Source of the DNA: a virus
Taxonomy: Duplodnaviria; Caudoviricetes
DNA length: 59,478 bases
Strand: one strand, 5' to 3'
Virus record (IMG/VR): IMGVR_UViG_3300031857_000194
Span: 1 to 59,478 of that record
In this document: positions 27,927 through 57,637 of the stretch, piece after piece
Numbering within the stretch: the first letter of the stretch is position 1
Layout of the letters: the number at the start of each line of letters is the position of its first letter
Notes under the pieces: generated by a model
Databases searched by the model: none
What the model was told of the DNA's origin: nothing
Seen by the model: the letters and a program-made list of their open reading frames with translations, nothing else
Position numbers and translations under genes: made by a program

Positions 27927-28631
27927 TTAGCGTGGCTCAATACGATATGTCTTTCTTAGCAGTCCAGGGAATGACATTTCAAACAGCATCTGTATATGCG
28001 GGTTGCTGGTATCAATGAACATATTGCTGGTCATCCAGCGGCGCCGCTGCCCCGTCATACGCTGTTGTAGACTAGGGCCCAGCCTGATTTCTTCTGAGTA
28101 ATTTTCGCAGAATTTTATCAGTTTTTCCACCACGGGCTCTTCCAGCCAGCGTTCTCGAAAATAGTGCCTTAATGTGTGCTCGGGATCTTTGAGTTGGATC
28201 ACGTCGGGTTCATGTGTGAGTTCAGCAGTGACCAGTTTCACGTGTTGTAGCTGTTGCCAGAACTTCTGTTCCTGCAGCCGGTGATAATCATTGGTGTAGA
28301 TCTGCAGCCAGTTGTCGTACAATACCACTTTGTCCTGATCATTGGATTCCAACCAGTCCAGGCATTCGTGCAAGGCCAGGACGTCATCAGCAGAAAAACT
28401 CTTGCCGGGACGAGTACGATTACCACGCCAGGACCCACCATAATTTATGTTACGCTTGAGTATCTGATCTCTGAATTCTATGTTTTCATCCAGGGTGCTG
28501 TGATCCCTCACACGGCCCAGTCTGGGCGACCTCAGCACTGCTGCTTCAAAAAGATAAGCAGAGATACTGTAGCGATAGCGGTTGTAAAACAGTGAACCGC
28601 GGGGTTGGGATTTAGACTCTAATAAGTCCAT
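27927..28631 (-). CDS. Hypothetical protein
   Basis: 234-aa ORF overlapping the end of clpA; start uncertain. Confidence 0.65.
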   Translation of the reverse strand: MDLLESKSQPRGSLFYNRYRYSISAYLFEAAVLRSPRLGRVRDHSTLDENIEFRDQILKRNINYGGSWRGNRTRPGKSFSADDVLALHECLDWLESNDQDKVVLYDNWLQIYTNDYHRLQEQKFWQQLQHVKLVTAELTHEPDVIQLKDPEHTLRHYFRERWLEEPVVEKLIKFCENYSEEIRLGPSLQQRMTGQRRRWMTSNMFIDTSNPHIQMLFEMSFPGLLRKTYRIEPR

Positions 28632-30879
28632 TGGTATCCACAGATCCTATCAAGTTGCTGGTAATGTCAAAGGTCACAGAATCTCCAACATAATCGGCCA
28701 TGATTTCACAGTTCATGAGATCATCAAACAGGATCTTGCGGCTAAGCGGCACACGAACTAGTTCATCGATTTTGCGGCTCAAGGGTCTAGCACCCATTTT
28801 GGCATCATAGCCTTTGTCTGCCAGGTGATCGATCAAGGCTTCCGAGAAGTTGATGCGAATGTTTTTGGGAGCCATGGCCTGTTGCAGTTGCTTGAGGAAT
28901 TTCAGCACGATACGCTTGATGGCCAGGGTATCCAGTTTCTGGAATTTACATATGGCATCAATACGATTGCGTATCTCAGGTTTGAAATAGTCTTTGAGTG
29001 CGCGATCTTCTTCGCCAGACTTGGCCAAGGCCACTCCAAAGCCAATGGCGTTGTTGTCATTGTCTCGAGCGCCCAGGTTGCTGGTCATGATGATGATGGT
29101 ATTTTTACAAGACACTTTCTTGCCATTGCTGCCAGTCACAGTGCCTTCGTCCAGCATCTGTAGCAAGATGTTGGACACATCAGGGTGCGCTTTTTCAATC
29201 TCATCAAACAAGATCACTGAATAGGGACTCTTGCTAAGATCATTGATGAGTTTGCCGCCGCCCAGGCTGTGATCTTCATAGCCCACATATCCTGGAGGCG
29301 CTCCAATTAGTGTTGACAGATTGTGCTTTTCTTGGAATTCGCTCATGTCATAGCGCAACAGTCGCATATCCAGTGCGTCACTGAGTGCCTTGGCCAGTTC
29401 GGTTTTGCCTGTGCCCGTGGGTCCAAGGAACAGGAACGATGCCAAGGGCCTGGTATCAACATTGATGCCAGCAAAAGAAACAAATATGCGATCGATCACG
29501 GGATCTATCACTTGATCCTGACCAAACAGCCGATCTTTCACAGTTTCAGCCAAACGCTTGATCTTGTCTGTGGTCTTGCTGGCCAGTTTGTCTCGCGGTA
29601 TGTCTGTAAATTTAGCGCAGGCAGTGATGATGTCTTCACGCAAGACCACAGCACCTTCAGCATCATTCACACGATAACCTGCACAGGCAGCATCCAACAG
29701 GTCAATGCTTTTGTCGGGATTTTTACGATCAGTGATATATCGATCACTCAGTTCCACTGCGGCCTTCACAGCATCTCTGTCGATCTGCACTGAGTGGAAT
29801 GTTTCCAGCCTGGGCTGCAGGCCTGTCAAGATATTTTCCGTATGCTCTGTGCTGGGTTCGTCTATGGCCACTTTGTAGAATCTACGCATGAGTGCGCGAT
29901 CCTTTTCAAATGACTCATAGTATTCTTCCCAAGTGGTACAAGCGATCACCTTCAAGTTGCCTTTGGTTATGGCAGGCTTGATCATGTTGGCCAGGTCCAT
30001 GCTGGAGTTGTTGGCAGCGCCTGCGCCTTTCATGGCGTGTGCTTCATCAATGAACAATATGCAGTTGTCTTTGGCTGCCAAGGCACTGAGCACGGCCTTG
30101 ACTTTTTCTTCAAAGTCTCCGCGATATTTGCTGCCTGCCAACACATCCGCAATGCTCATAGACCACACTTCGTGATTCTGCACAAACTTGGGCACTTCGC
30201 CTGCGATCACGGCCTGCGCCAGGCCTTCCACTATGGCAGTTTTGCCCACACCAGGATCGCCTACCAGCAACACGTTGCTTTTGAAACGCTTGGCCAGCAC
30301 AGTGATCATTTCTTTGAGTTCTGTGGCGCGACCTATCACGGGTTCATACTTGCCGGCTTCGGCCAGTGCAGTCATGTTGATGCAGTACTCTTCCAGTATT
30401 TCTGTGGCCTGCTTTCGGCCCAGTTTGGGTTCGCGCTGTTTGTGATGATGTCCTTGCCAGTACTCTACAAATTCTTGTTTGATCAGTCCATACTTGGAGA
30501 AAAAGTAGTGTGCGTGGCAGTTGTTTTCGCTCATGATGGACAGATACAGATCAATGGGTATCAGGAACCTGCGATTGCTGAACACCACCTGTGTCACAGC
30601 ACGATTGATCATGCGCTCGAGACCGTTGGTCTTTTTGGGCACAAACTCTTCGGGATCAACCGATTCCAACTCTAGACTTTTCATTGACTGTAGATAGGCT
30701 TCGATGTCGGCATCCAGGCTTTCAATGTCCACGCCAAAGTCCCGCGTTTGATTACGGAATTCTTGATTGCGTATCAGTGCCAACGCCACGTGTTCTAGCG
30801 TGACATATTCGTGACGCATATCAATGGCCAAGTCTCGCGCCATGTCGATGATGCTTTCAACTTCGGGATTATACTGCAT
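28612..30879 (-). CDS. clpA: ClpA-like AAA+ chaperone
   Basis: Clp N domain; two Walker A motifs (GDPGVGKT, GPTGTGKT); FIDEAH, FDEIEKAH, GARPL; no long ClpB middle domain. Confidence 0.9.
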   Translation of the reverse strand: MQYNPEVESIIDMARDLAIDMRHEYVTLEHVALALIRNQEFRNQTRDFGVDIESLDADIEAYLQSMKSLELESVDPEEFVPKKTNGLERMINRAVTQVVFSNRRFLIPIDLYLSIMSENNCHAHYFFSKYGLIKQEFVEYWQGHHHKQREPKLGRKQATEILEEYCINMTALAEAGKYEPVIGRATELKEMITVLAKRFKSNVLLVGDPGVGKTAIVEGLAQAVIAGEVPKFVQNHEVWSMSIADVLAGSKYRGDFEEKVKAVLSALAAKDNCILFIDEAHAMKGAGAANNSSMDLANMIKPAITKGNLKVIACTTWEEYYESFEKDRALMRRFYKVAIDEPSTEHTENILTGLQPRLETFHSVQIDRDAVKAAVELSDRYITDRKNPDKSIDLLDAACAGYRVNDAEGAVVLREDIITACAKFTDIPRDKLASKTTDKIKRLAETVKDRLFGQDQVIDPVIDRIFVSFAGINVDTRPLASFLFLGPTGTGKTELAKALSDALDMRLLRYDMSEFQEKHNLSTLIGAPPGYVGYEDHSLGGGKLINDLSKSPYSVILFDEIEKAHPDVSNILLQMLDEGTVTGSNGKKVSCKNTIIIMTSNLGARDNDNNAIGFGVALAKSGEEDRALKDYFKPEIRNRIDAICKFQKLDTLAIKRIVLKFLKQLQQAMAPKNIRINFSEALIDHLADKGYDAKMGARPLSRKIDELVRVPLSRKILFDDLMNCEIMADYVGDSVTFDITSNLIGSVDTNGLIRV

Positions 30880-31306
30880 GGTATGCCTTTCTGTCGTGCA
30901 TGGTTATGCCGTCTAAATGATCAAGTTCGTGCTGGAAACAACGAGATGCCAAGCCCAGTAATTCTTCTTGTACAATGTCTCCAGGGGCTGTGCGATATCT
31001 GACCTTTATTGTATTGGGTCTGCTTATTGTACACTGGTCTCCGGGAAAACTCAAGCAACCTTCGTCGAAATTGGCAAAATCGTCACTGGATTCCATAATT
31101 TGGGGATTGAAACAGGCCCAGGATCTCACACCAATTTTCATCACAAACACACGCTGGCCTATACCCACCTGCGGAGCTGCCAGACCTATGCCATTCTGGG
31201 CGATCATGAATTCCAAAAGGTTATTGGCCAGTCGTTGATTTTTCCAGGGATAGACAAAATCCACGGGCCTGGCAATCTTGTACAATACTCGACGTGTGAG
31301 TTTCAT
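30869..31306 (-). CDS. def: Peptide deformylase
   Basis: GIGLAAPQVG, EGCLS, QHELDHLDG. Confidence 0.95.
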   Translation of the reverse strand: MKLTRRVLYKIARPVDFVYPWKNQRLANNLLEFMIAQNGIGLAAPQVGIGQRVFVMKIGVRSWACFNPQIMESSDDFANFDEGCLSFPGDQCTISRPNTIKVRYRTAPGDIVQEELLGLASRCFQHELDHLDGITMHDRKAYHAV

Positions 31307-31314
31307 GAAATTAT

Positions 31315-32073
31315 TTACTGTTTTGTCCGCTTGATAGCATCCACGACATCTTGGGGTATGTTTCTGGGCAGGTGTGTTTCAATATTCACTATAATGTCCC
31401 CAGCAGGTCCGTTGGGATTTTTAAGTGCTTGACCACGCAGTCGCATCTGCGATCCGGGTCTGGTTCTTTCGGGCACTGAGACTGACAGCACTGTGTCCTG
31501 CAGCGTGGGTATCTCTAGTTCACAGCCCAGGATCAAATCCCAAAAATCCAAACTGCGTGTGATCACCAGGTTCAATCCCTGGCGCTGGAACTCGGCGTGA
31601 CGATCCACGATGTAGGTTATCACAAGATCATGATTGTTGGGTCCGAGATTGGGATAGCGTACTTCCTGTCCTGTTTCAATGCCCAGAGGTATGTCTATTT
31701 CGATCAGTCGCCCGGAAATATTAAAGTTACGCTTGCCCCCTGTTGCCAGATCCTTAAGGTTGATATGTGCCTGTACTCGGGCCTGGGGCCTGACCTGATG
31801 ACGGAACACGTGCCCGAAGATATCACCGAAATGATGTGCGAATTCTGGTGGTATGCCTGACTGCTGGAAATGGAATTGGCCTGGCGGGTTATCGTACTGG
31901 CTTCGCTTGGCATCATCAGATAGTGTAGCATATGCTTCCTGTATTTCCTGAAACTGTTTGGTATCACCGCCGCGATCGGGGTGATGCTTAGAGGCCAATC
32001 GGCGGTAAGCAGATTTGATATCATCTGCTGAGGCCGATCGCTCTACTCCTAAAATAGCATAATAGTCTTTCAC
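31315..32073 (-). CDS. dnaJ: DnaJ/CbpA-like co-chaperone (no Zn finger)
   Basis: J domain with HHPD and DnaJ C-terminal domains; GTG start. Confidence 0.9.
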
Positions 32074-32108: not shown

Positions 32109-32407
32109 ACTTCTTCTTTTTTGCCTGCTTCTATTGCCGCAACCTTTTCCTGGCCGCGTGTGTAAGCACTGATACCAAGTATGGCACCAAAAGCGATGTG
32201 TATAAATCCGCCGCCCTGCAGGCTCAAGGGAGCCCACTGACGGAATGCATCATTGGCTGCTTGTACTTCCCAAAACTGCACGATAGTAAACAGTACGGGA
32301 AACAGTATAAAATCTGCTATGTTGATCATCATGTAAGTTACAGCCATCATTGGACGCCATTTGCTGGTCATCCAATCCTGGGCTTTTTTCTCTGCTGCTG
32401 TGGCCAT
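32105..32407 (-). CDS. Putative holin (3TM/GTA-type)
   Basis: KWRPMMAVTY...HIAFGAILGISAYTRGQEK; start 32407 with GGAG SD. Confidence 0.6.
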   Translation of the reverse strand: MATAAEKKAQDWMTSKWRPMMAVTYMMINIADFILFPVLFTIVQFWEVQAANDAFRQWAPLSLQGGGFIHIAFGAILGISAYTRGQEKVAAIEAGKKEEV

Positions 32408-32505
32408 TGCTTGCTCCTTGTTGTAATAATTTGTACTTATTTCTCGCAAGTATTTTGGTCAGTGTGCAGTTTTTACACTAAGTATCATTTTATAGGGATA
32501 TTATC

Positions 32506-32886
32506 ATGGCCTGGACTGCTACACTAAACATCACCAACCTCACTGACTACAATCTCACTGTGAATCACAACACAGTGGGAGATTTGACCACTATCGCACC
32601 GGGAGCTGCTTGGTCCTGGACCACGTCGGATCCCAACAATACCAACGCCTTGCGTTTCTGGCAAACTCCGGAACAGTGGTATATGCAGGGCTCAGTGGCC
32701 TATGGCCCCATGGCTGGCGTTTATATGGATCGTGGCTGGATGGCACCTGCGGATCAGACCATCCGCTTGGATGCTGATGTCAATGGCACAGGATTCTCAC
32801 AGACCCAAAACGGTGGAGCCACTGTGGTGCCCTGGAACGGATTCGAATCCGGTGGCACGATCAATATGAAGTTTTCTAAGACTTGA
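32506..32886 (+). CDS. Hypothetical beta-rich protein
   Basis: 126-aa ORF with SD-like AGGGA and TAAGTA box at 32479-32484. Confidence 0.75.
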   Translation: MAWTATLNITNLTDYNLTVNHNTVGDLTTIAPGAAWSWTTSDPNNTNALRFWQTPEQWYMQGSVAYGPMAGVYMDRGWMAPADQTIRLDADVNGTGFSQTQNGGATVVPWNGFESGGTINMKFSKT

Positions 32887-33583
32887 TGTTGTAGGCCAAG
32901 CCCAGCGCAGCTAACACTCTGATCCAGAACCAGCCGATGTCGAACTCCCACCATTTGTGGCTGAGTTGTGCTGATGCTGGTCGTTCATGGTGATTGTTAT
33001 GTAATTCTTCGCCGCCGATAATGAAACCAATAGGACTAATATTCCTACTAGAATCCTGCGTGTTTGAGTTTCTATAACCCCAAAAATGTCCGACGCCATT
33101 TATCACTCCTGCGGCCCAGAACGGAATCCAGGCCATCTGTACCAACCATATCACTATGCCCCAGCCGTGGAACACAGCAGTCAATGCGCACAGCAACAAC
33201 AAGTATCCCAGGTTGGGATATCTACTGTATATATTCTGTTCTAGCCAATCCCGGGGCGTGCCGCGGCTGTACTGTTCAATCATGCGACGATTTTTGCTGG
33301 CGTCAGCGTACAGCCATGCGCCGCCAAACAGCACACGCCAGATGCCCAAGATCTGCGGCGAGTGTGGATCGCCTGCAGTTTCGCATTTCTGATGATGCAG
33401 TCTGTGTATGGCCACCCACTCGCGTGTGACCATGCCTGTGGTGAGCCACAGCCAGAATCTCATGGGATGGCTTACCCAAGGGCTCAGTTCCAGGGCCAAG
33501 TGTGTTTGATGTCGATGTAGGTAAATGGTAACACACAGTATGGTAATGTGTGTCATGATTAGTGTTAGTATGATTTCTATCAT
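32876..33583 (-). CDS. Membrane fatty-acid (delta-9 type) desaturase
   Basis: His boxes HRHQTH, HRLHH, HNNHH; WWEFDIGW. Confidence 0.9.
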   Translation of the reverse strand: MIEIILTLIMTHITILCVTIYLHRHQTHLALELSPWVSHPMRFWLWLTTGMVTREWVAIHRLHHQKCETAGDPHSPQILGIWRVLFGGAWLYADASKNRRMIEQYSRGTPRDWLEQNIYSRYPNLGYLLLLCALTAVFHGWGIVIWLVQMAWIPFWAAGVINGVGHFWGYRNSNTQDSSRNISPIGFIIGGEELHNNHHERPASAQLSHKWWEFDIGWFWIRVLAALGLAYNIKS

Positions 33584-33610
33584 GGCAAGTATTTAGTAAG
33601 TAGTAATGTC

Positions 33611-33696
33611 AGCGCTCACTTAAGTGATCTTGGGGTAGCGAATCCTGATCACAGCGCAGCAGCCGCGCAGCATAACCCTAACGGTCCTAGGGTATG
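33611..33696. ncRNA. Candidate structured RNA with rRNA-matching loops
   Basis: Three hairpins (GTGATC/GATCAC, GCGC/GCGC, ACCCTA/TAGGGT) in an intergenic gap; loops match conserved 16S/23S rRNA; TAAGTA box at 33597-33602 on the plus strand. Confidence 0.65.
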
Positions 33697-33699
33697 TGT

Positions 33700-34446
33700 T
33701 TATCGTCCTTGAGCGTAACTCAAGGCACCTTCATAAAAACTGGTGCTGGCTATGTCTCGGGGAACATAACTGGCATTCTTTAAATTTTTACGCTGTGCCC
33801 AAGCATAGCCGGCCATGTGACCTGAACAGTCTTGAGTACAGGGATAACCTTTGTAGTACAGGCCCACAGGTGACGGGGGTGAGTTGGGTGGGCGCTGTGT
33901 GGAAATGTTTTCGCAGATGGCTGTGTCAGGCTTGACACCAATCAACATGAATCTAGTGTAAGCACCATCTCGATCTCGTAATTTTAGATTGCCTTGATAC
34001 AAGGGCACGACATCGCCATATGATTCCATCAAGTCATTGCGATCGCGGGTCTGTACGGCGAATACCACACCTGCGGGCAAGGCATCATACCAACCAGATC
34101 CTGTCCAGTCATTGTGGCTGGTGTTGATCACAGTGTCGTCGGGCCAGTAATCAAACGTATTGGCATCACCGCAGATATGTCTAGCATGACTTAATTTTTT
34201 TCCATGATTGACAGCCGCAGGATCCAGGTCAATGTTGACCATGCGGTCCACAGGCAGTATCTCGGTGTCTTGTGCGATCTTGGCCAAGTTGCCGTTCCAA
34301 GATCCAATGATCACGATCCTGCCGTCATTGGCCATGGGCTGCAATCTGCGCAACAACCACAGTTTGCTGGCTATGAGATCGTCACTAAAACTGCCCGCCA
34401 CGGTATCAGGACTGGCTTCGTTCAATGATATATCAGTCATGGGCAT
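33700..34446 (-). CDS. Class I SAM-dependent methyltransferase-like protein with C-terminal YPCTQDCSGH module
   Basis: IVIIGSWNG, NIDLDP, GDAN, VINTS; second module after ICE; start 34446 or 34440. Confidence 0.65.
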   Translation of the reverse strand: MPMTDISLNEASPDTVAGSFSDDLIASKLWLLRRLQPMANDGRIVIIGSWNGNLAKIAQDTEILPVDRMVNIDLDPAAVNHGKKLSHARHICGDANTFDYWPDDTVINTSHNDWTGSGWYDALPAGVVFAVQTRDRNDLMESYGDVVPLYQGNLKLRDRDGAYTRFMLIGVKPDTAICENISTQRPPNSPPSPVGLYYKGYPCTQDCSGHMAGYAWAQRKNLKNASYVPRDIASTSFYEGALSYAQGR

Positions 34447-34948
34447 ATCTGTAGGCGGCACTGCACACGATCCTCTCACGATTGGTGTGGATTGGACCCA
34501 CACGATGCACCAGGAGATTTTTGTGATTGATCACTGCCACATCTCCTATTCGGGGAAAGTATTGTCTCGTGATGCCATCAAAGCACTGCATTTCCAAGGC
34601 ACCACCTTCTTGTTCAGTCATGGTGGTCTGATAGCACAGGAATTGTAAGTCCATTTTTTCTCTGGCATCGTCGTGCCACTGATCCGAGTAATGATCTATA
34701 CCAGACCAGACATAACTGTTGACCAGTTCCAGTGGGAAAAAATCCTGTGTGTGATATCGGATGCGGCTCTGCAAGATGTCAGTGGCTTGAGTGTTGATGC
34801 CGCCACGGAATCCCGGTGACTCTTCTTGCCAGACCACATCTGAGCAGATGTTTTCCAGCACAGGATCATGGAAAACATAGCAGCCAATGGTCAATAGATC
34901 CACCTGTAGATCTTCTAGATTGAATTGTTCACAGGCTTGTATGATCAT
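34433..34948 (-). CDS. 2OG-Fe(II) oxygenase superfamily protein
   Basis: WHDD (HxD), EGGALE, HRV...R pattern. Confidence 0.7.
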   Translation of the reverse strand: MIIQACEQFNLEDLQVDLLTIGCYVFHDPVLENICSDVVWQEESPGFRGGINTQATDILQSRIRYHTQDFFPLELVNSYVWSGIDHYSDQWHDDAREKMDLQFLCYQTTMTEQEGGALEMQCFDGITRQYFPRIGDVAVINHKNLLVHRVGPIHTNRERIVCSAAYRYAHD

Positions 34949-36681: not shown

Positions 36682-39600
36682 TTATTGTGTTGGGAAGGCT
36701 GCAGTGGGCGGTGTGAAGTTGGCAGTGTAACGGGCGTATCCTTTGGTTATGCGAAAGTCGTCGATGTAACCAGCAAATGGAAAGCTAATTCCTCCGTGAT
36801 AATAAGCCCCAATTGTGGGCACGTAAGAGCCGTAAGTGCTACCAGCTGTTATGTTGGTTGTGTTGGAGGCGGGGGTTCCGCCTGTCCCGTTAAGATAAAC
36901 AGTAACAGTGCCGTTTTGTCTTACTATCGCGGCGTGATTCCATGTTGACACCACGGGGGTTCCGGCGCTCTGAATGGCCGTGCCTCCGCCTGATGCTGTT
37001 GCAAAAAAAGATACCCTTTCCGTGACATTTGCTCCCACATATACTACACATAGGTTATGCCCTGAGATCGCTCGTGTGTAAACCATACCGGAGGTTGTGT
37101 TAATACAGTAGAACCAAAATTCAATGGTGAAATCGCCTGTTCCGAAATCAAAAAGATTGTACTGGCCGCTGTTAAGGTTGGCCAAAGCGTCACCGCTGCC
37201 ATCAAAGTACATGGATGACCCGCCGAACTTGCTCTGCACGGTTGATATCTGTGAGTTGCCTATGGTCTCCCAATCGCTCTTGGCGGCAGCATCGTAGATA
37301 CCCGCGTTAATGCCAGACAGTAAAATCGCTGTGCCCGACACAGCAGTCAGCGGTGCTGTTGGGGGAGTGAAGGCGCTGGTGTACAGCGCAGTGCCGACCA
37401 CTACTCTAAAATCGCAGGCGTATCCTAGCCAAGCACCACCATAGCTAGCATACTGGCCTAGACCATTTAATGTGCCTGCGGAATAGCCGGTGCTGACACT
37501 GCCCAAGAATACTCCATTCACAAACACTCGGATCAATCCCGATCCATCTCTAGTGATGGCTAGATGTTTCCAGCAGTTGGATCCCTTGACCTGTTCATTG
37601 GCCGTGGTTACCAATTGATTGCCCACGCTGCTTTTATCTAGTGTGATTGTTCCCGCGCTAACGTCAATGTAGACAGGAAAGTTGCCGATGGTAAAGAACC
37701 AACCGCCGGCATTGGTAGAGTTGAACCAACTTTCGATGGTAAAAACGCCAGAGATGTCAATGCTGGCTGATGTTGTGAGTTTGCTAGCTCCATCAAAATA
37801 CATGGACGCACCTATGCTGCTGGTCGAGTATGCCGCGTCTGGGTTGAACGGCGAGAAGGGCTGCACGGAGGTGTCGCCGGCGCGAGTGATGGCAACTTGA
37901 TTGATTGAGTTGTCAACGAAGCGATTGCTCTGGCAGGTTAGCAAAACAGTGTTAGCTACAGCAGACAGTGGAGATGTGCTTGGTGTAAAAGTAGTACTAT
38001 ACAAAGCACGTGTGGTCGCTCTCATATTTGAAAGGTAACCAACAAACGGAGAGCCCGTACCATCAAAGTCATTTCCAATGTATGCCAAAGTCCTAGACAT
38101 GTTCGCGGTGTTGGTGGCTGTTGTGGCATCTGCCACACCGTTGATGTAAATTTTTACATTACCACTTCCGGAACCATTTCTTACTAACGCAATATGAGTC
38201 CAAGTATTTGCAACCAGAGCTGTTGTTGTCGTAATTGCAAATAAATTATTTGTGTACAAATATACTTTTGCATTTGCGTCTAAACCAAAAGCAAAACCGT
38301 TTGTATCTGGATCACTTGTTCTATTATCCCAAATTAAACGATAATTTGCAAAGGAAAGGGGAAATACCCACATCTCTAATGTAAAATCACCGGAACCCAA
38401 AGCTGTCATTGTTCCAGTTCTTAGATTGTCACCGGTGCTACTAAAATAATTTGACCAGGCCTGCAAGGGCGGGGTGGTGTAGTTCACGATGCTGCCAAAT
38501 GGGTTGTTCAGCGTGCCCGTGTACGCGTTCCCGTTGACCGTGATCGTGAACGCGTTCGGGGAGTTGTCTATAAATGTACTGCTTTGGCAGGTCAGCAGCT
38601 GGGTGCCGGAGATTGCGGTGAGCGGCGCGGTGGGTACGGTGAAGTTTGAGGTGTAGACGGCATTGGAGGTTATGCGAGCATTCGAAATGCATCCAGTTAT
38701 GTATAACTGCGGTGAATTAGGATAAGCCAGCCCTATACCAAGCAATGTTCGATCTATTGACGCAGTAGCACTTGTAGGCGTTCCAACAGACGATCCATTA
38801 ACATATAAACTAATAGTGCCAGAAGATCGAACTCCAGCAAGATGAACCCAAGTATTAAGAGGAATTGCTGCGCCGGTTACGGTTGGGTTGACAACTCCTC
38901 CATTGCCAATAGCAAAAAAAGGCTGCCGTGAACTGTTTACCGCAAGATAGAATCCTTGCCCGGTGGCAGTATTGAATGAACTTATAACTCCAGCCTCAGT
39001 TCCCGGCGCAGAAGTCAAAAACACCCACGCCTCTAAGGTAAAATTTCCTGTGCCAACTGCAAAAGCAGATTGCGTTAGATTTAAATAGTCACCGCTGCCA
39101 TCAAAGTATCCCGACCAGTCGGTCATGCCGAACGGGTTCACCACCGTGGGCTGTGAGTTGCCAACGGCGGTGATGGCAAAGGCGTTGGTTGAGTTGTCAA
39201 TGAACCGACTGCTTTGGCAGGTCAGAAATTTAGTTCCCGTTATAGCGGTCAAAGGAGATGTTGTTGGAGTAAAACTTGATGTGTATACTGCTGAAGTTAC
39301 ATATCTGAAATTAGAAATATATCCGTTAAAAGAACTTCCTCCCAATGCAACTGCACCTACTAACATTGTAGTTGAAGTAAAATTTGTAGAGTTGCTAATA
39401 GTTGTTCCAACATTTCCATTTATGTAGACAGTCCAATTAGTTGAACCATTTCTTACTATCGCTAAATGATTCCATTGATTTGCTATAATTCCGCTAACAG
39501 ACCCAAGAACAGATCCTGTATATGTAATTTGTAATTGATTAGATGTGCTAACATTGACATCAAATCCGTCTGTTGAATCTCCAGATCGCGTATTAAAAAT

Positions 39601-39969
39601 TCCAACAGGCGACCCAAGAGATCTAATATAAAACCAGCATTCGTATGTGAACGATCCAGTGCCTGGTGCTGACGCAGTAAGAGTTGAACTAAGATAATCC
39701 CCCGAGCCATCAAAGTATCCCGAGTAGTAACCGTCAGTTTGCGTGCCACTGCCGAAGGTAAAGGGTGAGAATGCGCCCTGCGTGACGGAACCATTCCTTG
39801 TTACGGTAAGTGGGCTGGCCGAAGAATCTAGGAATGTGTTGTTCTGTGCGCCGTTCGTGCCATTCCCCGGCAGTAGCAATGATACCAAGTTGAAATAACT
39901 GTCTGAAGTTATACCTGCAGCCGACGAACTTACTGTCATGCCTTTGATTGCTGTTCCTTGTATTATCAT
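36682..39969 (-). CDS. Multi-LamG tail fibre/adhesin
   Basis: About five LamG units; ends ARYTANFTPPTAAFPTQ. Confidence 0.85.
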   Translation of the reverse strand: MIIQGTAIKGMTVSSSAAGITSDSYFNLVSLLLPGNGTNGAQNNTFLDSSASPLTVTRNGSVTQGAFSPFTFGSGTQTDGYYSGYFDGSGDYLSSTLTASAPGTGSFTYECWFYIRSLGSPVGIFNTRSGDSTDGFDVNVSTSNQLQITYTGSVLGSVSGIIANQWNHLAIVRNGSTNWTVYINGNVGTTISNSTNFTSTTMLVGAVALGGSSFNGYISNFRYVTSAVYTSSFTPTTSPLTAITGTKFLTCQSSRFIDNSTNAFAITAVGNSQPTVVNPFGMTDWSGYFDGSGDYLNLTQSAFAVGTGNFTLEAWVFLTSAPGTEAGVISSFNTATGQGFYLAVNSSRQPFFAIGNGGVVNPTVTGAAIPLNTWVHLAGVRSSGTISLYVNGSSVGTPTSATASIDRTLLGIGLAYPNSPQLYITGCISNARITSNAVYTSNFTVPTAPLTAISGTQLLTCQSSTFIDNSPNAFTITVNGNAYTGTLNNPFGSIVNYTTPPLQAWSNYFSSTGDNLRTGTMTALGSGDFTLEMWVFPLSFANYRLIWDNRTSDPDTNGFAFGLDANAKVYLYTNNLFAITTTTALVANTWTHIALVRNGSGSGNVKIYINGVADATTATNTANMSRTLAYIGNDFDGTGSPFVGYLSNMRATTRALYSTTFTPSTSPLSAVANTVLLTCQSNRFVDNSINQVAITRAGDTSVQPFSPFNPDAAYSTSSIGASMYFDGASKLTTSASIDISGVFTIESWFNSTNAGGWFFTIGNFPVYIDVSAGTITLDKSSVGNQLVTTANEQVKGSNCWKHLAITRDGSGLIRVFVNGVFLGSVSTGYSAGTLNGLGQYASYGGAWLGYACDFRVVVGTALYTSAFTPPTAPLTAVSGTAILLSGINAGIYDAAAKSDWETIGNSQISTVQSKFGGSSMYFDGSGDALANLNSGQYNLFDFGTGDFTIEFWFYCINTTSGMVYTRAISGHNLCVVYVGANVTERVSFFATASGGGTAIQSAGTPVVSTWNHAAIVRQNGTVTVYLNGTGGTPASNTTNITAGSTYGSYVPTIGAYYHGGISFPFAGYIDDFRITKGYARYTANFTPPTAAFPTQ
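39872..39900. repeat. 29-bp exact repeat (copy at 41989-42017)
   Basis: AGTAGCAATGATACCAAGTTGAAATAACT in the N-terminal regions of both adjacent LamG genes. Confidence 0.9.
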
Positions 39970-39980
39970 TGTATCTATTC

Positions 39981-42086
39981 CTATTGCGTGGGGAAGGCCG
40001 TGGTAGGCGGTGTGAAGTTGGTGGTGTACCGGGCGAAGCGGGTAATACGAACATCATCGAAATATCCATTTACAACAAGTGGTGTAGTAGATATTTGACC
40101 AGCTCCAATCACAACTGGTTCGGTTGTTGTCGTGATTGATGATTGAGTTGCAGTTGTGCCTATCTGCGTTCCATTTACAAAAATTCTTAAATTTCCAGAT
40201 GCACATGACACGGCAACATGTATCCACGCCCCTGTTGACAAGGTATATGTAGCATCGCGCACAACAGAGCCATTAGCCGCCCATCTAAAATTACCAGTGT
40301 TTCTCCATTGAAGTATCCATTCAGTCCCGGAATTCCATTTGCTTATCAGGTTCTGGTCTGCGGTTGTATTCGGATACCACCAAAACTCAATAGTAAAGTC
40401 TCCGGACCCAAAGTTATAAAACGCATTATTTGGTACAACTAGCCAATCGCCAGTGCCATCAAATGCCATGGAGGATCCACCAAACTTGCTTTGTGCAGTA
40501 CTGATGGCAGCACCACCCACGGTCTCCAGCACATTCTTGGCGGCAGCGTCAATGATACCACCATTGGTATAGTTGAGTAGCAGTTGAGTGTTGGCAATGG
40601 CGGTTAAGGGTGCGGTAGGTACAGTAATAGATGTTGCAGAAGCATCATAAACAGCCGTGCCTTTTACCACACGAAGGTCTTGTAAATAACCGTATAAAAG
40701 GTCTGTAATGGTATATCTGCTTCCAATAGTAGCCGTAGCGCCAGTAGAACTATAATTTGTAGTGTCGGTTTGTGTTGCTGTTCTAGTTCCATTTAAAAAT
40801 AAAGACCCAGTATTGGTGCTGCTATTTCTAACATAAACAACATGATTCCACGCATTTAAAGTTAATGCTGAACCCTCCAAAGTTGCAGAACCATTGTACC
40901 AGCCTAATAAATTAGCCGCCGCCCCGCTTCCGTTTAATCTACATCCAAGTACCCAAGTAGATGTAACAGATGCCGTCCTAGCATCATAAATATAGGCTGC
41001 TGCTACTCCTGACGGCGCTGAAAAAGGATAATACCAAGCCTCTACTGTAAATGACCCTGTACCAAATTGATTAGAGGTTGACGGAGAATACGTCAAATAA
41101 TCCCCACTACCATCAAAGTATCCCGAGCCGCCCACGGTGCCGGCAGCATAGGCAGTGGTAGGATCAAAGGGCGAGAATGCCTGTACGGAGGGAGTGTTAA
41201 GAGGTGTTATGGCAAGCGCATTGGTAGAATTATCAATATAACGATTGCTTTGGCAAGTCAGTAATGATGTACCAGACACTGCAGTCAGTGGCTGTGTTGG
41301 TGGTGTAAACGATGCTGAATATACAGCCGATCCTTTGACTACTCTAAAGTTGGAGATGTATCCATTGAAATCTCCAATATATGTATAGACATTGTACAGA
41401 TAAGCGCCCAAGCCTATGTACAATTGATAGTCGGTTGTGGAAGCGGGCCACGCACCCGATAGAGTGGGATTAGTAAAAGTAGATGTTATATCAGTTCCGT
41501 TGACAAAGAAATAGTTTGATCCGCTGATTCTGGACCACGCGATGTGTGTCCACGTGTTGAGAGGTATGATCGTACTGCTGGTGTTATCAGTATTAGATCC
41601 TCCATAGTCTCTAATTATTGATAACGCTCCGGTGTTTACAATGGACATACCATAATACTTGCTACCAGCTGGGAATGCAGCACCGTAAAAACTAAACAAG
41701 AAAGCAGAATTAAAGTAAGGAGCTCCTGCGGCGGGATACTGTGTTAGATATACCCAACATTCTACAGTTCCGCCGTTGACCATGTCAAACAATGTGCTGT
41801 TAGGAGTGGTCAGCCCTTTCATAGTAGATGTACTTGACCCTGCACTGTTGACAAACACGCTCCACCCGGTCTGGCTGAATGGTGAGAATGTGCCCTGCGT
41901 GGTGTTGCCGTTCCTTGTGACGGTGAAATTGTTGGTGCTTGAATCCAAGAAGGTGTTGTTTTGTGCACCATTGGTGCCGTTACCAGGTAGTAGCAATGAT
42001 ACCAAGTTGAAATAACTATCTGGTTCTACTGTAGCAGCAGATGAATACAATTTCAATCCGCGTATTTTTGTGCCTTGTATTTTCAT
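39981..42086 (-). CDS. Multi-LamG tail fibre/adhesin
   Basis: Three LamG units; ends ARYTTNFTPPTTAFPTQ. Confidence 0.85.
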   Translation of the reverse strand: MKIQGTKIRGLKLYSSAATVEPDSYFNLVSLLLPGNGTNGAQNNTFLDSSTNNFTVTRNGNTTQGTFSPFSQTGWSVFVNSAGSSTSTMKGLTTPNSTLFDMVNGGTVECWVYLTQYPAAGAPYFNSAFLFSFYGAAFPAGSKYYGMSIVNTGALSIIRDYGGSNTDNTSSTIIPLNTWTHIAWSRISGSNYFFVNGTDITSTFTNPTLSGAWPASTTDYQLYIGLGAYLYNVYTYIGDFNGYISNFRVVKGSAVYSASFTPPTQPLTAVSGTSLLTCQSNRYIDNSTNALAITPLNTPSVQAFSPFDPTTAYAAGTVGGSGYFDGSGDYLTYSPSTSNQFGTGSFTVEAWYYPFSAPSGVAAAYIYDARTASVTSTWVLGCRLNGSGAAANLLGWYNGSATLEGSALTLNAWNHVVYVRNSSTNTGSLFLNGTRTATQTDTTNYSSTGATATIGSRYTITDLLYGYLQDLRVVKGTAVYDASATSITVPTAPLTAIANTQLLLNYTNGGIIDAAAKNVLETVGGAAISTAQSKFGGSSMAFDGTGDWLVVPNNAFYNFGSGDFTIEFWWYPNTTADQNLISKWNSGTEWILQWRNTGNFRWAANGSVVRDATYTLSTGAWIHVAVSCASGNLRIFVNGTQIGTTATQSSITTTTEPVVIGAGQISTTPLVVNGYFDDVRITRFARYTTNFTPPTTAFPTQ

Positions 42087-54541: not shown

Positions 54542-55645
54542 TCAGGGATAACTTAAAAATATAGCGCCCACATTGCCGGAATTGGATCCGTTGCCTGCAC
54601 CACCAAATCCTGCACCCAGACACTGGGGATCTGCGCTGTTGGCCGAATCTCTACGTGCCGCTGCAGGCAACGGCGAAGTATAAGGACCGCCTAATCCTGT
54701 GCTGGTTGATCCGCTGGCAATGTTTGCGATATTGAAGTAACCTGCTCCGCCACCGCCACCGGCTCCGCCAGTGTATCCAGTGGGCAGTGTCGGTGGACTT
54801 GCTGCGGCTGTTCCACCAAAGTAACCGCCACCTCCTCCGCCCATGCCATAGAAATTAGGTGGAGCAGCACTGGGTCCAGTGATACCTTTGCCGCCTGCAC
54901 TCCAACCTGTACCACCAGGTGCATTACTAATACTGGGCGTTGACGCTGGAGCAGGTATTCTAGCATCACCTCCGTGCGCTGGTGGGCCATTGGGTACATA
55001 ATTACCGGGACCTACTGCACCGGTTGTGGTTCCTGGACCATTCCATGTTGCTCCACCGCCTCCATTGGCAGATCTGACACCACCAACTGATCCAGCACCT
55101 CCGGCAGTGCCACCGCCACCGCCACCTACTGCACCGCCTGACGTTACGGGAGCTACTGATACTACCGCGCCACCGCCACCTCCAGCGGCAACTGCTATGG
55201 TTACGGGACTGGGTGATACAGTTTCAATGCCAGTGGATCCGCCGCCCCCGCCGCAGCCTCGACGAACACCACCGGCCATGGCTGCGCCACCGCCAGAAGC
55301 CACACATAACTTATAGGATTCACCATTGACCAATGTCCACGTGCCACCAGTATAACCTGCTCCGCCTCCAGGAGATCCGCCTGTTACAGGAGATGTGGCA
55401 TAGCCGGATCCGCCGCCGCCTCCCCACATCTTAAGAGTCACACTGTAGTTACCTAAAGATGTTACTGTGTAATTGCCTGCCGAACTTAATCGCAATGATC
55501 CATCCACAGCAAAGTTCCAAAATGTATTGGCACCCTTGGGACTGGGACTAATGGTCAATTCGCCCAAGCCTGCAGGTGGCGCTGGAGCAGGCGATTCAGA
55601 TACAGTTATGATACTAGCGGCTGCTGCTTGTTGTATGCCTGACAT
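54542..55645 (-). CDS. Glycine-rich virion protein
   Basis: KMWGGGGGSG...GGGAGY glycine-rich domain. Confidence 0.8.
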   Translation of the reverse strand: MSGIQQAAAASIITVSESPAPAPPAGLGELTISPSPKGANTFWNFAVDGSLRLSSAGNYTVTSLGNYSVTLKMWGGGGGSGYATSPVTGGSPGGGAGYTGGTWTLVNGESYKLCVASGGGAAMAGGVRRGCGGGGGSTGIETVSPSPVTIAVAAGGGGGAVVSVAPVTSGGAVGGGGGGTAGGAGSVGGVRSANGGGGATWNGPGTTTGAVGPGNYVPNGPPAHGGDARIPAPASTPSISNAPGGTGWSAGGKGITGPSAAPPNFYGMGGGGGGYFGGTAAASPPTLPTGYTGGAGGGGGAGYFNIANIASGSTSTGLGGPYTSPLPAAARRDSANSADPQCLGAGFGGAGNGSNSGNVGAIFLSYP

Positions 55646-55651
55646 GGGATA

Positions 55652-57637
55652 TCAAGTGATGTTGGCACCGGAAAGGAACCAAGTGTTGGCTGAAACTTTT
55701 ACTATGGTTCCAAAGGCATTGCTGGTCATGGTCCTGTTGGCTGTGACTGTGATGGTACTGTTACCTGCTAGATAAATGCTAACACCACTGCCAGGAACGA
55801 TGGTGGAATTGCTGCTGCTTTGATTGATCAGTGTGACAGCAGCGCCCAAGGGAAAATTCACGCTGGAATCATCGGGCACAGTCAAAGTCACACCGCCAGC
55901 GCTGTTGTAATAGTGTTTGCCTGCATCAGACAAGCCCAACGTAGGAGTGCCAGTCCACGATACCTGTGGAATATCTCTATAGCCTATGCTGAAACCTCTG
56001 ATGTTACCTTCGTTAATGCTGGCAAAATTACTGAGCACTATGTTGCCACCTGATATGTTTGCGTTGGCAATAATAGTGCCGTTGGCTGTGATATTGCCTG
56101 CTTTCAGTGGTGCAAACACTGCCTGTGACCAAGCTATGACTGTATTGGGTTCTGACGACACACCTTCAAATACTTTCCAAGTTTTGTCGGTGTAATCTCT
56201 GGCAAAACCAGTATGTAGATTTGATCCGTTGAAATAACCTGCTACGATACCAAGATCTTCTGTGTCCCCGGGGTTGTTGGCAGCCAACAGAATCAAAGGA
56301 TCGTCTATGACCAAATCCTGTACATTGATATAAGTGAGATTGCCCGTGGCCGAGATGTTGCCGGCTACGATCAAATTGCCATTGACTGTGGTATTGCCTG
56401 CTGATATATTGCCTGCTGACAAATTGCCTGTGTATGTGGTTAGAAATACTGCTACATTGGCGTTGCCATAAGCGCTGCCGCCACCCACGCTGGATAAAAA
56501 GTATCCGTTGCCCAAGATGTATGCACCCTGCACATTGGCAGTGGTGGTGACGTTGCCAGTTAAACTGTTGATAGCGCCAGTGTATGTGGGCAAATAATCG
56601 GCTACATTGGCATTGCTGTAGTTTGTGCTGATGCCCGACAACAGCGCACCATTGCCCAAGAAATACCCAGCGGTGACATTGCCAGCAGTGGTTATACCAG
56701 TTGCAGCATTCACATTGCCAACAAATAGATTGCTCCACTGTGCTGTGGCAAAGTTCTGTAGTTTTACACCATTGACATTATCATAGCCCGAGGCTATGGT
56801 TACAGCAAAATTGCCGGTGCCATTATTGACATAAAAGCCATCATTGGTATAGATTCTTGCAAATGGATTAGTGGTTGTACCTATATCAACTGTAGTAAGT
56901 CCCCCCAAGGGAAAAATGTCTTCTGCGTACACTACGCCATTGAAGATTGGAGTGTTGTCCTGCGTGTTGCCATTGCCTATGTTACCGGTGAAACCATTGC
57001 CGAGATAATCTGCGACATTGGCATTGCCGTAAGAACTGCTGCCGCTGATGCCGGTCAAGAAAGCACCGTTGCCTAAAAAATAACTAGCTGTAACGTTGGC
57101 CGAGAAATTGCCGCCTGTGCCTGATACATTTGACAGTGCTATGATTTCGTTGGCTTCTACAAATGTATCAACTATGATATTGCCTGTGGCATCGATGGAT
57201 TCTACATAAAGTGTGCCGGCTGACACGTCTGAGGCTGAGCCAGTGATGGCATCAACAAAGGCCACACCACTTTGCCCTGCACCTGAAGCAGGCTGTATCT
57301 GTGTAGCGTTGCCTTGATCACCTGCAGGAGTTATCACATTGCCAACGTAGATGTCTCTAAAGAACAGTGTGCTATTGCCTATGTCAACTGCGTCATCGAT
57401 CAGTCCGAGACTGGCGCTCCATGGTAGTATGCTGTTGGCATACACATTGCCTGAAAACACTGTGGCGCCTACTGTGGTAAAGTTACCGGCAGCTGCGCTG
57501 GTATTGCCAATAACTATGCCGTTTATACTGCCCTGTGTGGTCAGTTCCCAGGCTTGACCGTTCCATATCCAGGTTTTACCGGCAAATGTATATAGATCGT
57601 TTAAACTAGGGCTAGTTGGAAAGGTCAGATTAGGCAC
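55652..57637 (-). CDS. Tail fibre-like protein
   Basis: FPTSPSLNDLYTFAGKTWIWNGQAW N-terminus; GNVTAxYFLGNG / YGNANVA repeats; GTG start; TAAATA at 57656-57661. Confidence 0.8.
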   Translation of the reverse strand: MPNLTFPTSPSLNDLYTFAGKTWIWNGQAWELTTQGSINGIVIGNTSAAAGNFTTVGATVFSGNVYANSILPWSASLGLIDDAVDIGNSTLFFRDIYVGNVITPAGDQGNATQIQPASGAGQSGVAFVDAITGSASDVSAGTLYVESIDATGNIIVDTFVEANEIIALSNVSGTGGNFSANVTASYFLGNGAFLTGISGSSSYGNANVADYLGNGFTGNIGNGNTQDNTPIFNGVVYAEDIFPLGGLTTVDIGTTTNPFARIYTNDGFYVNNGTGNFAVTIASGYDNVNGVKLQNFATAQWSNLFVGNVNAATGITTAGNVTAGYFLGNGALLSGISTNYSNANVADYLPTYTGAINSLTGNVTTTANVQGAYILGNGYFLSSVGGGSAYGNANVAVFLTTYTGNLSAGNISAGNTTVNGNLIVAGNISATGNLTYINVQDLVIDDPLILLAANNPGDTEDLGIVAGYFNGSNLHTGFARDYTDKTWKVFEGVSSEPNTVIAWSQAVFAPLKAGNITANGTIIANANISGGNIVLSNFASINEGNIRGFSIGYRDIPQVSWTGTPTLGLSDAGKHYYNSAGGVTLTVPDDSSVNFPLGAAVTLINQSSSNSTIVPGSGVSIYLAGNSTITVTANRTMTSNAFGTIVKVSANTWFLSGANIT

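Follow-up and report, generated by a model that had tools for sequence, protein, structure and literature searches.

Short RNA segments that pair with ribosomal RNA (rRNA) are known from several settings. The termination upstream ribosome-binding sites (TURBS) of caliciviruses and influenza B virus, the 3' translation enhancers of plant viruses, and the Shine-Dalgarno sequence all pair with rRNA, and in eukaryotes and archaea U3, box C/D, and H/ACA RNAs are guides or chaperones that pair with it at several sites. We know of no such multi-site rRNA-pairing guide RNA in bacteria or phages. The oligomers that target helix 69 and further rRNA sites in antisense are man-made and reportedly inhibit translation. 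The put RNA of HK022 and the EAR of Bacillus eps operons are cis-acting RNAs for processive antitermination, to our knowledge without complementarity to rRNA. In the present study, we analyzed a virus contig record of 59,478 bp (IMG/VR record IMGVR_UViG_3300031857_000194, positions 1 to 59,478; hereafter the window), in which nearly all of the large open reading frames (ORFs) are on the minus strand. A 116-bp gap at 33584-33699, with a minus-strand ORF on either side, contains an element of three hairpins. We are highly confident that the gap holds one copy of a new structured RNA family of freshwater phages, many of them jumbo phages, that the family is real and single-copy, and that its RNA is that of the minus strand. 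The parts of this RNA that are constant in the family are complementary to conserved rRNA (see below).

The element resembles TURBS, the plant-virus enhancers, and the Shine-Dalgarno sequence in that a viral RNA segment adjoins a stop codon, precedes the next start codon, and is complementary to conserved rRNA. However, each of those elements uses a single short stretch of small-subunit rRNA and is located upstream of its stop/start site, whereas the element has three or four segments directed at both subunits in a folded unit of 80-108 nt that is unique in the genome. With U3 and the box RNAs it shares several short segments complementary to functional centers of rRNA; unlike the box C/D and H/ACA RNAs, it showed no conserved box in the consensus when inspected by eye without a formal search, and the order of its segments does not fit a guide pocket. 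The synthetic oligomers against helix 69 have the same target region as the element, and from their reported action helix 69 appears to be accessible to a complementary strand. Trans-acting antisense small RNAs (sRNAs) with several seeds likewise carry short constant single-stranded segments on variable stems, but the known seeds target messenger RNAs (mRNAs), whereas the only significant complement found for the element is rRNA; the element also differs from these sRNAs in having no visible promoter or terminator of its own and in standing directly behind a stop codon. Like put and EAR, it is a small multi-hairpin RNA in a long operon, co-oriented with the genes and present in one or few copies, but neither has a sequence or Rfam match to it. 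A covariation-based catalog of structured RNAs in IMG/VR contains 10,006 candidates (Fremin, Bhatt and Kyrpides 2023, PMC10690425). The collection (phage contigs of IMG/VR) and the kind of evidence are the same as here, and our motif may be one of its unnamed candidates; the accessible sections of that article describe no motif with rRNA complementarity, and state that no rRNA gene predictions overlapped the candidates. Literature searches returned nothing relevant on natural phage RNAs with complementarity to rRNA or helix 69.

Relatives of the element were collected with two search patterns anchored on different segments, and all family counts given here stand for the matches listed. The first pattern (loops 2 and 3) gave 36 viral contigs, and the second (segment 1 and the tail) gave at least 120. 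The family has at least 163 instances, at least 127 of them distinct, with a maximum of one per locus, and its members occur in at least 142 distinct gene contexts of phage contigs. On the gene strand the order of the parts is S1, the P2 loop GGCTGCT, the P3 loop ATTCGCTAC, and the tail AAGTGAGC (Table 1), and all of them were found in the window, which is row 1 of the seed alignment A1; for the family as a whole, the tail segment S4 is stated as AAAGTGAGC. The conservation of each segment was read where it lay outside the search pattern. S1 was found in 35 of 35 readable copies (24 with CCTTAGGACCG, 10 with CCCTAGGACCG, which is the form in the window, and one with CCTCAGGACCG), and S4 in 34 of 36; among the matches listed, S2 was unchanged in 116 of 120 and S3 was present in 95 of 120. 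The other classes of loop 3 are GAGTCGTGCC (9 of 120 among the matches listed; 10 of the 127 aligned) and CGCCATTC (4 sequences). The span from S1 to S4 is 66-94 nt (median, 83), and the whole element measures approximately 80-108 nt.

The covariance model R1, which was built from A1 with hairpins P1a, P2, and P3, matched once in the window and once in each of four records of 262-344 kb. A 353-kb record has two R1 matches, the second of which is weak (G003:C1:76940-77018, E value 1e-5). In the bacterial and archaeal genomes, the combined pattern was found in only 2 of 185,579 species, both times in contigs of Bacteroidota metagenome-assembled genomes (MAGs); no rRNA was found in these two MAGs, which are incomplete genomes. 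The original prediction, made from the letters of the window alone, had known of no described RNA family of this kind, and Rfam 15 agrees: with the whole window, it gave 0 matches at the gathering score, and with 33400-33900 at E <= 10 it gave one chance match outside the gap (RMST_8, E 7.6) and none within it. Two further sequences were observed during these searches. A contig (L018, 3699-3787) has a diverged member in which S1 and loop 3 are kept and the loop of hairpin 2 is different and longer (profile E 1.2e-4), and a weak model match in the window at 55601-55685 on the plus strand (8.9 bits, E 2.4), which contains CGGCTGCTG, is probably due to chance.

Covariation was examined in alignment A2, in which 100 members were aligned to R1 (14 pairs, 1344 cells). 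Standard pairs occupy 88.4% of the cells versus 59.5% in shuffles, and 0 of 500 shuffles reach the observed value, a count that is not a probability, as A2 is fitted to the model and its sequences are related. The covariation score was 0.687, compared with 0.202 in shuffles and 0.03-0.15 when the partners were slid by 1-3 columns, and 13 of the 14 pairs change on both sides. In the P2 stem, pairs 2-4 covary and 99% of the cells are paired; in P3, 80% of the cells are paired in the proximal helix and 97% in the distal helix. Counts made without an alignment at loop 2 gave C-G 68 and G-C 59 for pair 2; G-C 90, C-G 36, and U-G 1 for pair 3; and G-C 65, A-U 38, C-G 10, and G-U 10 for pair 4. It had been suggested that relatives would show invariant loops on covarying stems, and the paired fraction together with the four constant single-stranded segments bears this out. 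The P1 domain is variable: S1 is partly paired in some members, including that of the window, and elsewhere lies in an internal loop below the inner hairpin P1a, which is missing from short forms. Inspection by eye gave no intramolecular partner for the constant segments and no convincing pseudoknot between them.

In three metagenome contigs (L095-L097), the upstream gene, at 94-96% identity, is followed by the element. Homology extends over the first 87 nt of the gap, where hairpin 1 is the same as in the window. In hairpin 2, the stem reads AGGC/GCCT in place of GCGC/GCGC, with two compensated pairs and an unchanged loop, and hairpin 3 keeps its core with different closing arms. The gene downstream is a different one in these contigs (DNA polymerase III alpha), and the element therefore moves together with the upstream gene. 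Only 33632-33697 is common to the window and the DNA contigs of other contexts. A perfect 12-nt palindrome at 33616-33627 (TCACTTAAGTGA) overlaps the tail; it is present in the variant of the window only, and L095-L097 read CACCAAGTGAGC.

Table 1. The element, its hairpins and constant segments, and the two flanking genes, in positions of the window
Feature	Position	Strand	Description
Whole element	33611-33703	minus	Covariance model R1: 73.1 bits, E 4.8e-15, model positions 1-95; sole significant match in the window
Hairpin P1	33671-33696	minus	Stem CATACCCTA / TAGGGT-TATG with one bulged T, loop GGACCGT; from inverted repeat I8 and minimum-free-energy (MFE) fold
Conserved segment S1	33682-33692	minus	CCCTAGGACCG in the window, CCTTAGGACCG in the family majority; complementary to 23S 1920-1930
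Hairpin P2	33654-33668	minus	4-bp stem GCGC/GCGC, loop GGCTGCT; from model alignment
Conserved segment S2	33657-33665	minus	CGGCTGCTG; complementary to 16S 519-527 (530 loop)
Hairpin P3	33624-33652	minus	Outer stem GTGATC/GATCAC, inner stem GG/CC, loop ATTCGCTAC; from inverted repeat I6 and model alignment
Conserved segment S3	33635-33643	minus	ATTCGCTAC; complementary to 23S 1930-1937, with the following C to 1929-1937
Single-stranded tail S4	33614-33621	minus	AAGTGAGC; invariant columns of alignment A1
Upstream gene	33700-34503	minus	267 aa; TAA stop at 33700-33702 abuts the 5' edge of the element
Downstream gene	32876-33583	minus	Fatty-acid desaturase family protein, PF00487, E 1.5e-13 (Pfam); context only

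The strand of the RNA could be decided from its base pairs and from its neighbors. Over the 14 pairs of the minus strand, there are 84 G-U versus 28 A-C combinations, and in P1a and P2 there are 25 versus 0. Furthermore, among the 142 contexts, the upstream ORF is on the same strand as the element in 118 and on the opposite strand in 6, and the downstream ORF in 131 and 6, respectively (a co-orientation of approximately 95%). Because of these counts and the orientation of the genes, we assign the structure to the gene strand (the minus strand of the window), so that its loops are complementary to rRNA and not copies of it. The asymmetry of G-U and A-C is also compatible with single-stranded DNA of the minus strand. 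In 75 of the 118 contexts the upstream stop codon is 2-12 nt before S1, and in 20 it is the TAG within S1; the next start codon is 1-87 nt past the tail. By eye, the stretch that separates the element from the next gene contains a sigma-70-like promoter together with a ribosome-binding site in L176, L182, and L185. The flanking genes are varied: upstream are those for an endonuclease, a deaminase, an S-adenosylhomocysteine (AdoHcy) hydrolase, or unknown proteins, and downstream are those for radical SAM proteins (two), a terminase, a cyclase, a DNA polymerase, or unknown proteins. Among 18 flanking proteins, there was no conserved neighbor that might encode a partner. The element behaves as a single-copy RNA gene embedded in an operon, unlike a general terminator. 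An intrinsic terminator of the upstream gene was rejected: the gene strand has no terminator-like site in 33300-34000, the tail after P3 is AAGTGAGC and not a U tract, and there is about one copy per genome. A transfer RNA (tRNA) or transfer-messenger RNA was likewise rejected, the ARAGORN scan of the window giving 0 genes.

The original prediction had reported plus-strand copies of E. coli rRNA, three of them centered on hairpin loops. With the E. coli MG1655 rrnH operon (L001) as the rRNA reference, each match was reproduced: 33657-33667 is letter for letter 16S 519-529 (11 of 11), 33671-33694 agrees with 23S 1909-1932 at 20 of 24 positions, 33634-33642 equals 23S 1929-1937 (9 of 9), and 33614-33620 equals 23S 1099-1105 (7 of 7). 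The hairpins are present in the 116-bp gap as well, ACCCTA/TAGGGT and GTGATC/GATCAC as inverted repeats and GCGC/GCGC from the sequence and the model alignment. A captured fragment of an rRNA gene, which the same prediction had denied, was also rejected here: the small- and large-subunit rRNA models were unmatched in 33400-33900 at E <= 10, there is no long colinear similarity, and the pieces are 7-24 nt long, derive from both 16S and 23S rRNA in a shuffled order, and have antisense polarity on the structure-bearing strand. For the gap alone, the scores of the best ungapped matches to 16S, 23S, and 5S rRNA were reached by 1-4 of 1000 dinucleotide shuffles. Its fold energy is ordinary (z = -1.0 for the minus strand and -0.5 for the plus strand), and, per base, it does not stand out from other gaps.

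At the level of the family, the relation to rRNA is stronger. The longest exact antisense matches are 11 nt for S1 (23S 1920-1930), 9 nt for S2 (16S 519-527), 8 nt for S3 (23S 1930-1937), and 7 nt for S4 (23S 1099-1105). Their sum of 35 was reached by 0 of 20,000 shuffled segment sets (maximum, 34), whereas the sum of 26 in the sense orientation is typical, being reached by 15,217 of 20,000; these values are conditional, as the finding had been selected for its likeness to rRNA. The significance check that had been called for came out positive for the family; for the window alone it came out negative once other places were considered, 8 of which are as good. For the single segments, the fraction of shuffles that did equally well was 0.0015 for S1, 0.016 for S2, 0.066 for S3, and 0.63 for S4. 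S1 and S3 jointly cover the continuous stretch 1920-1937 of 23S rRNA, which is the 3' strand of helix 69 and its 3' flank, overlapping at 1929-1931. The A2 profile was searched against 2.2 Mb (all collected loci, the window, and the rrn operon) with the members masked; after three further members, the best match was the antisense of E. coli 23S 1871-1933 (E 0.0014). In this alignment by the family profile, the P1 domain lies on antisense 23S 1908-1933, and the consensus of P1 and P1a tracks antisense helix 69 and its 3' flank over approximately 26 consecutive, nearly identical columns.

A test independent of the window's own sequence was provided by the CGCCATTC class of loop 3, which consists of four sequences and is not the class of the window. 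It is complementary at 9 of 9 positions to 23S 1968-1976, 30 nt downstream of the main target, and 110 of 5000 shuffles were equal to it. Among loci from the family of one element-bearing Bacteroidota MAG, the 23S sequence from helix 69 to approximately 1973 is identical to that of E. coli in three of four, and the 1968-1976 site differs by one base, which would change a G-C pair to G-U. The 16S 519-527 site is generally regarded as universal. The decoding center brings helix 69 and the 530 loop together, and the central intersubunit bridge is formed by helix 69. As for mRNA targets within the window, no complement of S1, S3, or S4 was found, and for S2 there were only two 9-mers at chance level. 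The complementarity of the constant parts to rRNA is non-random, and we regard this result as solid.

In our best explanation, the element stands directly behind the preceding stop codon with no visible promoter of its own, like a tRNA gene in a phage operon. Three freely covarying hairpins hold out the constant segments S1 (CCTTAGGACCG), S2 (CGGCTGCTG), S3 (ATTCGCTAC), and S4 (AAAGTGAGC). The RNA may be cut from the polycistronic transcript or be active within it, and the exposed segments may pair with host rRNA at the subunit interface and the decoding center, on free subunits or on nascent rRNA. Such pairing would hold, block, or redirect ribosomes during infection. That the RNA acts by pairing with rRNA is our leading reading, which is suggested by the complementarity and put forward tentatively, at clearly less than even chances; the whole explanation, a new family together with rRNA pairing, we would call not far short of even. 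A more specific form is rather unlikely as it stands: in freshwater phages, some of which have the ribosomal protein bS21, a single-copy RNA might pair with the 530 loop, with helix 69 through 1937, and in a variant with 1968-1976, and might seize, silence, or reprogram ribosomes or block their assembly. Of the five element-bearing jumbo records, three (G001, G002, and G004, behind L189, L184, and L201) have bS21 above the Pfam cut-off (61-63 bits). Freshwater Bacteroidetes phages of approximately 300 kb with bS21 are reported to have a GC content of 31-34% (PMC9723584); that of the window is 45-55%, above this range, and we link neither group to the other. The original prediction had offered two readings. 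A minus-strand RNA behind the upstream gene with loops that pair with rRNA gained support for its strand (84 versus 28; 118 and 131 versus 6 and 6) and for its complementarity (0 of 20,000; E 0.0014), with the pairing itself as tentative as stated above. A plus-strand rRNA mimic transcribed from a TAAGTA box was not supported, as there is no promoter-like site in 33300-34000 and the 84 G-U pairs would become A-C mismatches.

Several observations weigh against the pairing of the RNA with rRNA. The rRNA score of the gap is equaled by 14-18 of 4094 window-strands of the same length, at 8 other places, and because of these places the window alone fails the look-elsewhere test. The 7-nt rRNA complement of S4 is at chance and has no weight, no significant rRNA complement was found for the GAGTCGTGCC class of loop 3 or for a single odd member, and the p-values are conditional, as mentioned above. 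The stem of helix 69, which is part of the target, is already paired in mature ribosomes. In 10 of 35 copies, including that of the window, S1 reads CCCTAGG, which makes a C-A mismatch in the duplex with rRNA and yet gives a better P1 stem of its own. P1a covaries and is absent in short forms, and therefore only S1 of the "anti-helix-69" domain is constrained in sequence. Furthermore, S1 is 5' of S3 although the target of S1 is also 5' of that of S3, so that no single ordinary continuous duplex can be formed. When MFE folds of the two strands were compared, the antisense fold was lower in 80 of 127 (p 0.06), and the minus strand was not favored. Finally, no transcript across the element was found: two RNA runs with 6-7% of the words have contigs over parts of 32913-33448 and 33794-33855, leaving the element uncovered, and these contigs weigh neither way on expression.

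Alternatively, a protein or RNA polymerase could recognize the constant loops of a conserved structured RNA, and the likeness to antisense rRNA would be a relic of its origin or a coincidence; the RNA might be a processive antiterminator, an element for processing or stability, or a packaging or regulatory RNA. The family, the covariation, the single copy, and the gene-strand orientation fit this equally well, and the position inside operons among varied genes is that of cis-acting antiterminator RNAs. The change of S1 in 10 of 35 copies favors the RNA's own stem over pairing with rRNA, and the second-commonest class of loop 3 is without an rRNA complement. In many members of A1 (e.g., L205, L207, and L311), the internal loop of P3 has GTA (5') facing GAA (3'), an arrangement reminiscent of a protein-binding motif of the loop-E or sarcin-ricin type. 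However, a relic or coincidence leaves it poorly explained why two loops should cover one continuous stretch of 23S rRNA, and the complementarity falls exactly on the constant segments (0 of 20,000; E 0.0014); moreover, a conserved gene for the partner is missing among the 18 flanking proteins. We consider an RNA read in this way a serious contender but, on balance, unlikely.

The remaining alternatives are less likely. An RNA of the plus strand would copy helix 69, the 530 loop, and 1929-1937 and might be a decoy for factors, modifying enzymes, or nucleases. The plus strand is indeed identical to rRNA at the places given above, the reverse complement of the family profile follows helix 69 with its hairpin, the MFE is slightly lower on this strand (80 of 127), and a weak terminator-like site is present on it at 33675-33693. 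Against such a mimic stand the base-pair counts (84 versus 28, and 25 versus 0, for G-U and A-C), which put mismatches into stems of 4-5 bp; the co-orientation of the element and its neighbors (approximately 95%); and the lack of a promoter-like site in 33300-34000. In addition, such copies would not preserve the helices of rRNA, as constancy is limited to 9-12 nt and the closing stems do not resemble those of rRNA. We consider the mimic improbable. We would give an equally small chance to a signal at the DNA level, in which hairpins of single-stranded DNA serve a protein of replication, priming, recombination, or packaging, with the uniqueness of an origin or of a single-strand initiation site. 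One copy per genome would suit such a signal, G-T pairs are tolerated in DNA hairpins so that the strand asymmetry fits, and the element is at a boundary of cassette exchange (the homology of L004 ends at the gap, and other contexts have only 33632-33697 in common). The cumulative GC skew is flat near its minimum at approximately 30-36 kb, which is weak support, but it has no clear turning point; tight abutment to stop codons and strict co-orientation with transcription suit RNA better, no conserved replication gene adjoins the element, and the rRNA complementarity would be left unexplained. Ordinary intergenic DNA, with a 3' hairpin or terminator and chance matches to rRNA, would agree with the 8 other window places of equal rRNA score and with the unremarkable fold energy. 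This explanation is barely credible and was refuted by the family, the copy number, and the covariation: more than 140 contexts have the same architecture, with strong covariation and constant loops, the gene strand lacks a terminator-like site in 33300-34000, and terminators do not occur just once per genome of 260-350 kb.

With respect to the locus itself, TAAGTA is present at 33597-33602, and no promoter-like site was found on either strand in 33300-34000. The same region has two terminator-like sites, both on the plus strand, one of them the weak site mentioned above. A 7-bp hairpin (CCTTGAG/CTCAAGG, 5-nt loop) was observed at 33707-33725, where the upstream gene has its final codons, immediately ahead of the element. 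The label "methyltransferase," which the upstream gene had been given previously, is a lead only. Its 267-aa protein had no Pfam match at E <= 0.001 and one weak unrelated match at E <= 10; the nearest Atlas cluster with a Pfam family has a score of 0.90, and Methyltransf_31 is found on 21% of the members of that cluster. A blastn search of the phage GenBank collection with 32800-34600 gave no match.

Comparison with related contigs shows a mosaic. A relative with 93% identity to the window record is 169.5 kb long (L003), and the gap is identical (116 of 116) in two near-identical contigs. The alignment with L003 has 10 mismatches in 32179-33735 (approximately 1.6 kb) and 307 in 4541 nt overall; because the gap lies inside this nearly identical block, its identity is uninformative on constraint. 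The distribution of the mismatches points to a recent exchange of the block, which would have included the desaturase gene, small ORFs, and the element. In L004 (95% DNA identity), homology ends exactly at the start of the desaturase gene (33583/33584), and a different ORF of 168-213 aa stands in place of the upstream gene and the element; judged from the alignment, a cassette was swapped at this junction, and the element marks the edge of it. In distant homologues of the C-terminal 54 residues of the upstream protein, the next gene follows immediately without the element in 11 of 11 loci. In relatives that have the desaturase, the element was observed within 3 kb of the desaturase gene (L013, 3705-3805; L063, 1620-1716; and L074, 1-105); in L013 it is directly behind that gene, and it thus recurs in one accessory region at different junctions. 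This accessory-gene neighborhood of the window (28612-32073, 34433-34948, and 36682-42086) includes a ClpB-like double AAA+ chaperone, a DnaJ with a C-terminal domain, a weakly matching 2OG-Fe(II) oxygenase, and two very large Laminin_G_3 (concanavalin-like) proteins.

A structured, conserved, single-copy RNA that covaries strongly and has no relative in Rfam is a discovery by itself, and it is accompanied here by an alignment, a structure, and a covariance model. If pairing with rRNA is not its function, the family still needs one, and the loops define the binding surface to be sought. The complementarity of the loops to helix 69, its flank, and the 530 loop makes for a sharp hypothesis, namely, that a virus RNA pairs with the most conserved core of the ribosome. 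If this is true, no earlier natural antisense-to-rRNA regulator would be known from bacteria or their viruses, and the element would be a natural example of rRNA sites that are open to antisense attack. It would also represent a new principle by which phages take over translation, besides phage ribosomal proteins and tRNAs.

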